From: a virus
Taxonomy: Duplodnaviria > Heunggongvirae > Uroviricota > Caudoviricetes
DNA: 11,304 bases
Virus record (IMG/VR): IMGVR_UViG_2526164662_000024
Span: 1-11,304 of that record
Direction: 5' to 3' (one strand)
The position numbers were made by a program. Below, piece by piece: positions 1 to 3,000 of this stretch (its first letter is position 1; every line of letters starts with the position of its first letter).

Positions 1-3000
1 AAAACAGCGTCAGCCATTGCCGCCGGTTATTCGGCGAAGACCGCCAGGGTTAAAGGCTCGCAGCTGGCAAAAGATCCTGAGGTGCTTGCGTTTATAGCCC
101 GTAAACAATGCGAGACGGTGGAGGTGGATGAGGTTCCTGTTTACCGGCAGAAAAAATCAGAGCAGGAGGATAAACCCCGTCGCCGTGAGGCGGCTGCAAT
201 ACCACAGCCGGACGAAAACAATCTGGAGATGCCACCGTCCGCGGTGATGTCTCCTGGTATTGAATATATGGAGGATGGTCTTCCCGATCCGGTGAAAGCG
301 ATGGGGCGTCTTCTGGTGGAGAACCTTTGTATTGATCCGAGGCTGGCGCTGGATGCGGCTTGTCGTCTGGCGCAGTTCACGCACCATAAAAAAGGGGATG
401 CCGGTAAAAAATCGGCAAAAGGTGATGCGGCGAAAAAAGCGGCTAACCGTTTTGCGGTGCCACCGCCACCCCGACTGGTGGTGAATAACGATAATGAGGG
501 CAACGGATGATACCTGTATGGAGCACAGCCTGCCCGGACTGGGCAGAGCGCCTGAAAAAGGGGCTGTCGATTATTCCGGATCCGATTTATCCGGACGAGG
601 CCGCACATGCCCTGGCGATTTTTAAACAACTGCGGATTGTGGATGCACCTGGTAGCCCTACGTTCGGGGAGTCCTGTGCACCGTGGGTGTTTGACCTGGT
701 GGCGGCCCTGTTTGGCTCCTACGATGCGCAGACCGGTGTACGCCATATCAAGGAAGTTTTTATCCTTATCCCCAAGAAAAACTCGAAGTCCACGCTGGCC
801 GCGGGGATCATGATGACTGCACTGTTACTGAACTGGCGGCAGGCGGCGGGTTACACGATTCTGGCCCCGACTGTGGAGGTGGCGGCCAACGCCTTCAACC
901 CTGCCCGGGATATGGTACGACGTGACGATGATCTGGATGACCTCTGCCAGGTGCAGACCCATATCCGGACCATCACCCACCGGGTGACGGACACCACCCT
1001 GAAGGTGGTGGCAGCCGATCCGAATACGGTGTCCGGTATCAAGTCCGTGGGTACGCTGATTGATGAGTTGTGGCTGTTTGGCAAGCAGTGCAAGGCGGAG
1101 GACATGTTACGTGAAGCCATAGGCGGCCTTGCCTCCCGCCCGGAAGGGTTTGTGGTGTATACGACCACCCAGTCGAATGAACCGTCCGCCGGGGTGTTCA
1201 GACAGAAACTGCAGTACGCCCGGGATGTGCGCGACGGCAAAAATTCATGATCCGCACTTTCTGCCGGTGATATTTGAACACCCTCCTGAAATGGTGGAAA
1301 GCGGGGCTAACCTGCTGATGGAAAACCTCGCCATGGTCAATCCGAATCTCGGCTATTCAGTGGATGAGGCCTTTCTGTACCGGGAGTACCGTAAAGCCCG
1401 GGAAGCCGGTGAAGAGACATTCCGGGGGTTCATGTCAAAACACGCCAATGTGGAAATTGGTCTTGCCCTGCGCTCTGACCGCTGGGCGGGGGCTGATTTC
1501 TGGGAAGAGCAGGGCCGTTGTATCAGCCTGGACGATATCCTGCGTCGTGCTGATGTGGTGACGGTGGGGATTGACGGCGGGGGCTGGATGATCTGCTGGG
1601 GATGTATGTGATTGGGCGTGACCGGGAGACCCGCGAATGGCTGGGCTGGGGCCATGCCTGGGCGCATGAAACCGCGGTGGTCCGACGGAAGAGCGAGGCG
1701 TCCCGGTTTCAGGATCTTGTTGCCTGTGGAGATATGACCATTGTCCGGCGTGTCGGGGATGACACGGCGGAAGTGGCGGAATATGTGCGTCGCATTCATG
1801 AGGCTGAGTTACTGGACCATATCGGTATTGACCCGTCAGGGGTGGGGCAGATTCTGGATTCACTGGCGGAAGCCGGGATCCCCGACGGAATTGTGGTGGG
1901 GATAAGCCAGGGCTGGAAACTGGGCGGGGCCATTAAAACCACCAAGCGCAAACTGGCTGAAGGGGTGCTGGTGCATGGTGACCAGCCCCTGATGGCCTGG
2001 TGTGTCGGCAATGCCCGGGTGGAGCCTAAAGGTAACGCCATTCTTATCACCAAACAGGCCAGTGGACGGGGAAAAATTGACCCGCTGATGGCGCTGTTCA
2101 ATGCGGTCTCCCTGATGTCCCTTAACCCGGAACCGAAAAAGAAAGAATATGCGGTTTTTTTCATATAACCCTGTTCACACTGTAACCATCACGAACCGCT
2201 CCGGCGGTTTTTTATTTTCAGGAGGCTGATGTGACTCTTAAACGGGCCTGTTCCCTGCTGACGGTGAAATCCTTCAGTGAGGATGAACGGGTGATCACCG
2301 GGATTGCGTCAACGCCTTCTCCGGATCGGGATGGTGACATCCTGGAGCCGGAGGGCGCGGAGTTTGGCAGTGCGATACCGTTTCTCTGGCAGCATGACCA
2401 TTCCCGCCCGGTGGGGCAGTGTACGGTGCGCCGGGTCAGCGAAGGGCTGGAATCACGGCAACACTGGTGAAGCCCGTACCGGATATGCCGTCGCAACTGG
2501 CTGCCCGGCTGGATGAGGTCTGGGCGGCCATTAAGACCGGGCTGGTCAGGGGGCTGTCCGTGGGCTTCCGTCCCCATGAATACACCTTTCTGGACGGAGG
2601 CGGACTGCATTTTCTGCGCTGGGAACTGATGGAGGTGTCTGCCGTCACCGTGCCCGCGAATGCGGAATGCACCATCCGGACCATTAAATCTTACGACCGC
2701 CCGTTTTCTGCCGCGTCCGGCAACCGGAAACCGGTGGTGAAAATCGCATCTTCTGCCGGCGCTGCGGCACAGTCAACAACCGTTTTTCATAAGGAAAAGA
2801 CCATAATGAATATTGGCGAACAGATTAAAAGTTTTGAAAACAAGCGTGCAGCGCTGGCAGCCTCCCTTGAGGAGGTCATGACCAAAGCCGCAGAGGAAGG
2901 GCGCACGCTGGATGTGGAGGAGGAAGAGCATTACGACAACACCGCAGCGGAAATCCGTCAGGTGGATGCGCACCTGAAGCGCCTGCGTGAACTGGAAGCC

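Follow-up and report, generated by a model that had tools for sequence, protein, structure and literature searches.

Intact lambdoid modules of the Stx type, such as those of Pankowvirus YYZ-2008, phage 2851, and the E. coli strains O145 RM12761, O103 ML775, and ST131 4224, share one gene order: terS, terL, a protease-capsid fusion, a small ORF, portal, connector, head closure, a gp10-like gene, gp17, and the major tail gene. Members of this phage family with an interrupted terL also exist. In Stx2a_WGPS4, a finished sequence that also carries a portal pseudogene, terL is frameshifted by a single inserted A, and in phage 1717 and Stx2a_F349 the gene is interrupted by an insertion of IS629.

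The window analyzed here, 11,304 bp in length, is the entire WGS contig AIGU01000018.1 from GCA_000250095.2, a draft assembly, dating from 2012, of E. coli DEC10F, a strain of the DECA collection. It has the same gene order as the intact modules, and over positions 400-4300 the named records are 97.7-99.8% identical to it. Unlike them, it has eight one-base indels, two private missense changes, and an ISEc23 element that separates gp17 from the major tail gene. It resembles Stx2a_WGPS4 in the interruption of terL, at a different site; but against a single indel in 3.9 kb of WGPS4, the window has four in that span and four more downstream. Are the frameshifts in the head genes mutations of the strain, or mistakes in its sequence? 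We find it quite probable (about 0.83), from sequence comparison, that the three frameshifts are consensus errors of a pyrosequencing-era draft, and we infer that the reads rather than the DNA are at fault. This reading is favored because of the pattern of indels across the whole contig, the near-total absence of these alleles elsewhere, and the exact restoration of common proteins when the indels are reverted.

All the phage genes lie on the plus strand, to which all positions and runs given below refer. The terminase small subunit gene terS (1-510), which has lost its 5′ end at the contig start, is annotated as such in the homologous loci, and its called product has a weak match to Terminase_2. 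The large subunit gene terL (507-2168) is spread over three ORFs (507-1250, 1129-1611, and 1602-2168), where intact homologs have a single frame of 1662 nt encoding 553 aa; within the middle ORF only 1244-1580 is terL sequence. Once repaired, the 553-aa protein has a TerL_ATPase domain at residues 63-238 (PF03354, 45.2 bits) and a TerL_nuclease domain at residues 276-535 (PF20441, 37.6 bits), both above the gathering score.

The original prediction, made from the sequence alone, was that terminase and protease are broken by single-base changes at homopolymers, at 1239-1243, 1579-1583, and 2447-2454; it took no side on whether the changes are real or artifactual. Comparison with intact homologs confirms a break at each of these positions. 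At 1239-1243 (terL codon 245) the window reads AAAAA, one A more than the AAAA present in every homolog aligned, and because of this extra base the frame that starts at 507 ends at the stop codon at 1248-1250. As deposited, TerL thus ends at codon 247. At the second site, codon 358, a base is missing between positions 1580 and 1581, which brings translation back to the original frame. Between the two sites, all 337 bases match those of RM12761, a strain with an intact terL, and so two independent one-base changes enclose genuine terminase sequence, as had been proposed. The prediction had also taken the second site for a G5 run lacking one G. One base is indeed missing at 1579-1583, but close relatives have GGAGGG where the window has GGGGG. 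Because the closest relatives read GGCGGAGGGCTGG, the simplest account of the event is that a GGA codon lost its A, between GG and GGG, and that this loss itself created the G5 run. The more distant alleles (JLK-2012, phage 2851, and PPyecE) read GGCGGGGGCCTGG; a shortened G6 run is less likely than the loss of the A, even though these alleles are G-rich there. The description as changes at homopolymers therefore holds for 1239-1243 and 2451-2452, but not for 1580.

Two private substitutions accompany the indels in terL: a C to T at 1185 (Pro227Ser) and a G to A at 1944 (Glu480Lys). Neither 71-nt stretch has an exact match, the first among 2,746 copies and the second among 1,658.

The third frameshift falls in a gene (2231-4167) that appears as two ORFs (2231-2470 and 2419-4167). 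At 2451-2452, codon 74, within the protease domain, the window has AA where all homologs have AAA, so that 2447-2454 reads CTGGAATC instead of the CTGGAAATC of all homologs; the gene is one base short, as originally stated, and as deposited it ends at codon 79. Calling it a protease gene captures only part of it. The repaired protein does have a Peptidase_S78 domain (PF04586, residues 48-152), but this is followed by a Phage_capsid domain (PF05065, residues 386-635), and the homologs, of 1938 nt and 645 aa, are annotated as major head protein/prohead protease. The gene is a fusion of prohead protease, scaffold, and major capsid protein, of which the protease is the N-terminal domain, and therefore a real frameshift at 2451-2452 would abolish the capsid protein as well.

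The genes that follow are intact. The portal gene (4379-6958) encodes 859 aa, and its exact protein is found on 209 contigs; the head-tail connector, the head closure gene, the HK97-gp10-like gene, and the tail completion gene gp17 (together 6961-8431) each encode a protein whose exact copy is found on at least 1,000 contigs. The 5,981 central bases (2455-8435) are 100.0% identical to strain ML775, with one mismatch and no gap. The major tail subunit gene (11038-11304) has lost its 3′ end at the contig end.

ISEc23, an element of the IS66 family, is inserted on the minus strand (8481-11013), after the neck genes and before the major tail gene. It is flanked by a perfect 8-bp target duplication, GGTTTTTT, at 8473-8480 and 11014-11021, and IS66-family elements make target duplications of 8 bp. 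Apart from its indels the element is two substitutions away from an active copy. Judged by its sequence, the insertion in this prophage is real and recent. In ST131 strain 4224 the same IS is found elsewhere, between head closure and gp10. A misassembly of the element at its place in the window is ruled out by the perfect duplication, despite the different site in ST131 strains. The transposase of the element is divided among three ORFs and its tnpA between two. The first of its indels is a T5 run at 9011-9015 in the transposase, where the reference copy has T4; the second, also in the transposase, is an extra T at 9567, outside any homopolymer (GTGCTT to GTGTCTT); and the third is a T3 run at 10811-10813 in tnpA, where the reference copy has T4.

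Two more indels are intergenic. The run at 2208-2213, between terL and the protease-capsid gene, and the run at 8439-8444, just 3′ of gp17, are both T6 in the window and T7 in the aligned homologs. The terminase and protease events are thus not special to those genes, since five more single-base indels occur on the same contig, three of them in ISEc23.

Compared with intact relatives, the contig has eight single-base indels in 11.3 kb, or 0.7 per kb (1239-1243, 1580/1581, 2208-2213, 2451-2452, 8439-8444, 9011-9015, 9567, and 10811-10813). The base concerned is an A or a T in all eight, which given a G+C content of 56.5% has a chance probability of 1e-3. Six of the eight are in A/T runs of 3-7 bases (for at least six of eight in runs of three bases or longer, the chance is 5e-4), and the other two, at 1580 and 9567, are single-base events that adjoin runs and are not simple changes of homopolymer length. 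Three indels fall in phage genes, two between genes, and three inside ISEc23. Because two are intergenic and three lie in a recently inserted element, their placement shows no sign of selection. The deposited gene calls split the frame-broken genes into fragments, and every unbroken protein encoded on the contig matches a common protein exactly.

How many indels should be expected if these were real alleles? Among seven intact homologs, the 1.4 kb around the terL and protease sites has 88 variable columns and not a single indel column, versus four private indels and two private substitutions in the same 1.4 kb of the window (Fisher p = 5e-6). Over 3.9 kb, homologs with 121-126 differing sites show zero indels relative to one another. 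Thus, real alleles accumulate 0 indels per 88-126 substitutions, while the whole window has eight indels and two private substitutions that are verified (about seven at most with the candidates), an indel load out of proportion to neutral decay. When the indels are reverted, the protease-capsid protein, the ISEc23 transposase, and TnpA each become identical to proteins found on at least 1,000 contigs. TerL becomes identical to a protein on at least 1,000 contigs only once both private missense changes are also reverted.

We searched 5,426 complete E. coli genomes for the indel alleles, using exact 71-nt stretches; those around 1239, 1580, 2450, 9567, and 10810 are each present in 2,227-5,683 copies. 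In these genomes there are zero exact matches to the A5 allele at 1239 (2,826 copies), to the G5 allele at 1580 (2,936 copies), to the AA allele at 2450 (2,227 copies), or to the extra T at 9567 (5,377 copies). For the T3 allele at 10810, there is no full-length exact match among the matches listed for complete E. coli genomes. Two records of at least 99% identity in that search rank under full-length matches of 98.6%, and are probably partial alignments. Among 3,415 E. coli records, with 6,468 copies in all, 2 carry the T5 allele at 9011, and both are complete genomes; in E138, the one inspected, the annotation marks the IS copy as frameshifted. In a set of about 15 billion proteins, the truncated products of 247, 79, 188, and 222 aa are on record for AIGU01000018.1 alone, the 222-aa one being that of the transposase broken at 9567, and the 65-aa truncated tnpA product is the sole member of its own cluster. 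Because the alleles at 1239, 1580, and 2450 are absent from all 5,426 genomes and the truncated products that we looked up are on no other contig, the indels show no sign of having been inherited.

If the indels are errors of the consensus, most of them would be miscounted homopolymer lengths, and the others would be single-base overcalls or undercalls beside runs; the merging of repeated prophage and IS copies may have made such miscalls worse. In the real prophage, both the large terminase (553 aa) and the protease-capsid fusion (645 aa) would then be intact. Homopolymer undercalls and overcalls in pyrosequencing are a known source of false frameshifts (PMC2905547). For other 2012 drafts of E. 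coli, the same sequencing center relied on 454 Titanium and the Celera assembler (PMC3491183), and from that sister paper we infer that DEC10F may also have been pyrosequenced. Sister DEC drafts have unexplained frameshifts in cas genes, for which their authors suspected errors (PMC5592225). Like homopolymer frameshifts of the 454 era, the window shows single-base length changes, mostly in A/T runs, that occur regardless of whether the sequence is a gene, intergenic, or a mobile element; all but one of the indels are unseen outside this assembly in the sequences examined, and reversion restores known proteins exactly. On the other hand, for a 454-era consensus at normal coverage, 0.7 per kb is high, and the window also differs in having its errors in two patches and two of the eight outside homopolymers. 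The private changes are grouped at 1185-2450 and at 8438-10810, with the 6 kb between them clean, a clustering that counts against consensus error.

The strongest competitor to consensus error is that the one-base indels are real, produced by replication slippage in a decaying and immobile prophage. The terminase would then be a 247-aa ATPase fragment and the protease a 79-aa stub, leaving the phage able neither to build capsids nor to package DNA. We consider this unlikely, but several observations do speak for it. Short A/T runs do mutate by slippage, and the sequence as deposited does have inactivating lesions in essential morphogenesis genes (TerL codon 247 and fusion codon 79). Some members of this phage family have a truly inactivated terL, as the frameshift in WGPS4 and the IS629 insertions in other members demonstrate, and the DEC10F prophage already carries one real lesion, the ISEc23 insertion with its target duplication; both facts count against an artifact. 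So do the two missense transitions in TerL at 1185 and 1944, because such changes are not a typical product of pyrosequencing and would fit the drift of an inactivated gene. Finally, the T5 allele at 9011 is shared with two complete genomes.

Against real pseudogenization stands the ratio of indels to private substitutions, so far from that of real alleles. Moreover, three of the indels are in a recently transposed element whose proteins otherwise copy the active element exactly, and the alleles at 1239, 1580, and 2450 and the truncated products looked up have no counterpart elsewhere. A rate of 0.7 indels per kb over the whole genome would presumably leave no viable strain, so that only this region could be affected, and we know of no mechanism that would restrict an indel process in this way. 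It would take a local burst of slippage at A/T tracts that silenced the packaging motor, the capsid gene, and a fresh IS transposase together, and almost without substitutions! That all eight A/T indels are real in this way seems to us improbable, even more so than pseudogenization in general; if true, it would suggest an unrecognized mutational process, restricted to a region and biased toward indels, acting on a prophage.

A further possibility, and a very doubtful one, is that the fault lies in the assembly and not in base calling: several near-identical lambdoid prophages and ISEc23 copies would have been collapsed into one consensus, with indels where differing reads were merged. A single complete E. 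coli genome can hold as many as 7 copies of the head module and as many as 23 of ISEc23, and the contig breaks off within terS at one end and within the major tail gene at the other, in the manner of contigs bounded by repeats. The private changes are grouped in the IS and in terL, where alleles of the module vary most, and at 1580 there are two allele types, GGAGGGC and GGGGGCC, whose merger could give GGGGGC. However, outside the private changes terL follows one allele type, like that of RM12761, with no mosaic of the second type, and at most of the sites the homologs do not vary at all, so that merging alone would create no length change there.

As for programmed recoding, in which a +1 shift at GGC AAA AAT and a −1 shift at GGC GGG GGC would yield a full-length terminase and another shift would serve the protease gene, nothing is in its favor except that the shifted segments encode genuine protein, and we give it almost no credence. 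Programmed frameshifting and transcriptional slippage are both ruled out by the continuous frames in about 2,200-2,900 homologous copies per site and in all phage homologs examined, and by the fact that indels of this kind also lie between genes and within the IS; an A5 run is too short for transcriptional slippage, and we know of no +1 shift signal at the terminase site.

Taken at face value, the contig describes an Stx-type prophage unable to package DNA or to build capsids. If instead the indels are consensus errors, nothing is broken in the head and packaging genes, and the sole real lesion is ISEc23 between the neck and tail genes. The original expectation, that the module would be intact if the changes are artifactual, thus stands for the reading frames, but does not extend to the element with its 8-bp target duplication that separates the neck genes from the major tail gene. 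The finding is chiefly a caution, as counts of prophage pseudogenes or of phage "defectiveness" taken from drafts of the 2012 era would mislead. And if the indels are real, this would be an ordinary decaying prophage, which is unremarkable too.

Two minor observations concern the rest of the window. At positions 426, 953, and 4965, which are candidate private substitutions, the window is unlike every homolog aligned there (two to three homologs per site). And the T6 run at 2208-2213 lies 3′ of a GC-rich inverted repeat (CCGC..GCGG), an arrangement that, inspected by eye, looks like a terminator.

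The window, 11,304 bases long, is the complete WGS contig AIGU01000018.1 of the Escherichia coli DEC10F draft assembly (GCA_000250095.2). On it lies a head-and-packaging module from a lambdoid, Stx-phage-like prophage. The order of genes is terS (terminase small subunit, cut by the contig start), terL (terminase large subunit, 507-2168, plus strand), a protease-scaffold-major capsid fusion (2231-4167, plus strand), a 73-aa ORF, portal, head-tail connector, head closure, HK97-gp10-like and gp17 tail completion, followed by an ISEc23 insertion and the major tail gene, of which only the start lies within the contig. 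About 1,250 of the 5,426 complete E. coli genomes contain the module, in up to seven copies per genome, and phages YYZ-2008, 2851 and JLK-2012 have it in common at 96.8-98.7% identity. The DEC10F accessions EHW98893, EHW98895, EHW98896 and EHW98907 are truncated proteins encoded by this contig.

The original prediction named three one-base breaks in terL and a protease gene, and proposed a comparison with intact homologues. An alignment to the nearest intact relatives shows all three. Positions 1239-1243 are A5, with the predicted extra base, where every aligned homologue has A4; terL leaves its frame at codon 245 and runs into a stop at 1248-1250. At codon 358, one base is absent between 1580 and 1581, and the original frame is regained. 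Between the two sites lie 337 bases that match intact terL exactly, and the two changes are therefore independent events, as had been proposed. The predicted loss at the G5 run (1579-1583) holds, but not as a shortened G run: the close relatives carry GGCGGAGGGCTGG there (GGCGGGGGCCTGG in more distant alleles), so that losing an A to make the G5 run is a simpler event than shortening a G6 run. In the third case, 2451-2452 has two A residues against three in all homologues, and the frame is shifted at codon 74. The missing base is as predicted, but there is no separate protease: the repaired gene encodes Peptidase_S78 (residues 48-152) and then Phage_capsid (386-635) in one product, which is therefore a fused protease-capsid protein. 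In repaired TerL, residues 63-238 form an ATPase domain and residues 276-535 a nuclease domain.

The observation is confirmed; its interpretation is partly supported, in that the anatomy and the framing of an open question were right, but a contig-wide pattern of indels was missed. Relative to intact relatives, the contig has eight single-base indels. Besides the added A at 1239 (A4 to A5), the lost A at 1580, and A3 to A2 at 2451-2452, these are T7 to T6 at 2208-2213 (intergenic, in a putative terminator), T7 to T6 at 8439-8444 (intergenic), T4 to T5 at 9011-9015 and an added T at 9567 (both in the ISEc23 transposase), and T4 to T3 at 10811-10813 (ISEc23 tnpA). Every one of the eight is a gain or loss of A or T, despite a contig G+C of 56.5% (p ~1e-3), and six fall in runs of at least three, which account for 17% of the sequence (p ~5e-4). 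Private changes are restricted to two patches, 1185-2450 and 8438-10810, and the central 53% of the contig contains none of the 10 events (chance ~5e-4).

Real variation in this module looks different. In 1.4 kb around the sites, seven intact homologues have 88 variable columns and no indel columns, while the window contributes four private indels and two private substitutions (Fisher p = 5e-6). Over 3.9 kb, homologues 121-126 positions apart have no indels between them. The central 5,981 bases (2455-8435) are 100.0% identical without a gap to E. coli O103 strain ML775, the one mismatch in direct alignment being at 4965. On these comparisons, the contig is made up of ordinary circulating alleles. 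Between about 960 and 8480, ML775 is nearly identical to the window, but it is strongly divergent upstream (terS and 5′ terL), and strain RM12761 is near-identical over 400-4300. Comparison of 24-953 with both strains reveals a mosaic boundary, and what looks like a recombination junction lies within terL near 953-1185.

Are the indel alleles found elsewhere? We compared 71-base queries centred on the sites to the 5,426 complete E. coli genomes, where the queried stretches each occur in 2,227-5,683 copies. The queries for 1239, 1580, 2450 and 9567 have no exact match in these genomes, and that for 10810 has no full-length exact match among the matches listed; for all five the best full-length match is 98.6%, that is, one gap. 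Two records at 99% or above for the 10810 query rank under 98.6% full-length matches and are probably partial alignments. The T5 allele at 9011 does occur, in ISEc23 copies of two complete-genome records, E138 and LR-31; in E138 (NZ_AP022351.1, 1535-3528) the annotation marks both transposase and tnpB of this copy as frameshifted or as pseudogenes. Either the site is a hotspot of slippage, or a sequencing error recurs there. Exact look-ups among ~15 billion proteins find the truncated products of 247, 79, 188 and 222 aa from this contig only, and the 65-aa tnpA fragment is a single-member cluster.

Undoing all eight indels brings back full-length reading frames. The repaired protease-capsid protein (645 aa) matches letter for letter a protein on at least 1,000 contigs, and so, exactly, do the repaired ISEc23 transposase (537 aa) and TnpA (141 aa), as well as all six of the other, unbroken contig proteins. 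TerL with only its indels undone has no identical protein on record. It also differs by two missense transitions private to the window, C to T at 1185 (Pro227Ser) and G to A at 1944 (Glu480Lys), neither present in the complete E. coli genomes searched; with these also undone, it is identical to a protein on at least 1,000 contigs. Substitutions at 426, 953 and 4965 are unlike every homologue compared that aligned at each site, and G:C to A:T accounts for four of the five substitutions in total.

We therefore consider consensus error in the draft assembly the best explanation of the eight-indel pattern, with a probability of about 0.83: the spectrum is almost all indels, these are biased to homopolymers, they ignore coding status and strike a multi-copy IS with otherwise perfect proteins, and their alleles are almost wholly missing from other data. 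The three frameshifts, with the other indels, would then be errors of the draft, and most likely the frameshift feature is not real. We infer that a strain with this indel density genome-wide could not be viable. Pyrosequencing is known to produce false frameshifts through undercalled and overcalled homopolymers (PMC2905547). In 2012, other E. coli drafts from the same sequencing centre were made with 454 Titanium and the Celera assembler (PMC3491183), and cas gene frameshifts in sister DEC drafts were suspected, by authors using those drafts, to be sequencing or assembly errors (PMC5592225).

That the indels are genuinely in the DEC10F prophage is unlikely, though terL inactivation is known among its relatives. 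In Stx2a_WGPS4 (AP012538.1), a finished prophage of the same family, terL is split by a single inserted A at ~935, outside any homopolymer (GCC-TCC to GCCATCC), and the portal is annotated as a pseudogene, which sets a precedent for real decay of the head module; phage 1717 and Stx2a_F349 have IS629 within terL. The DEC10F prophage itself bears a real IS insertion, and two of its eight indels are outside homopolymers. Homopolymer miscalling does not make missense transitions such as the two in TerL, but these may be no more than strain-specific variation in a functional gene. The clustering in two patches could reflect low coverage or merged repeat copies, a form of the artefact reading that, taken alone, seems very improbable. 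Programmed frameshifting is excluded because all homologues compared have continuous frames.

Real indels would leave the terminase as an ATPase fragment only and the protease as a 79-aa stub, and the prophage unable to assemble capsids or package DNA. If consensus error is the cause, terL and the protease-capsid gene are intact, as originally predicted for an artefact, but the module keeps ISEc23 as the only real lesion seen. Neither reading brings new biology; the value is in the warning not to infer gene loss from this contig.

The ISEc23 insertion itself is real. This IS66-family element (2,533 bp, minus strand, 8473-11021 including the target duplication) lies between two perfect copies of an 8-bp duplication, GGTTTTTT, one at 8473-8480 and one at 11014-11021. 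Its target is a T-tract immediately upstream of the major tail gene, and no reading frame is interrupted by its insertion between gp17 and that gene. In this type of prophage, ST131 strain 4224 and four other genomes have ISEc23 at another site, between the genes for head closure and gp10; the insertions into this one module are independent.

The portal ORF (4379-6958) is intact at 859 aa, with an identical protein on 209 contigs. The recorded gene calls begin it at 5741, giving only 405 aa, which is a problem of annotation and not of sequence. In the C-terminal part of the gene, at 5966-6498, a 162-bp (54-aa) unit is repeated in tandem, with 3.3 copies at 95% match, and homologous portals on record have 807, 859 or 861 aa, which suggests that the repeat copy number varies.
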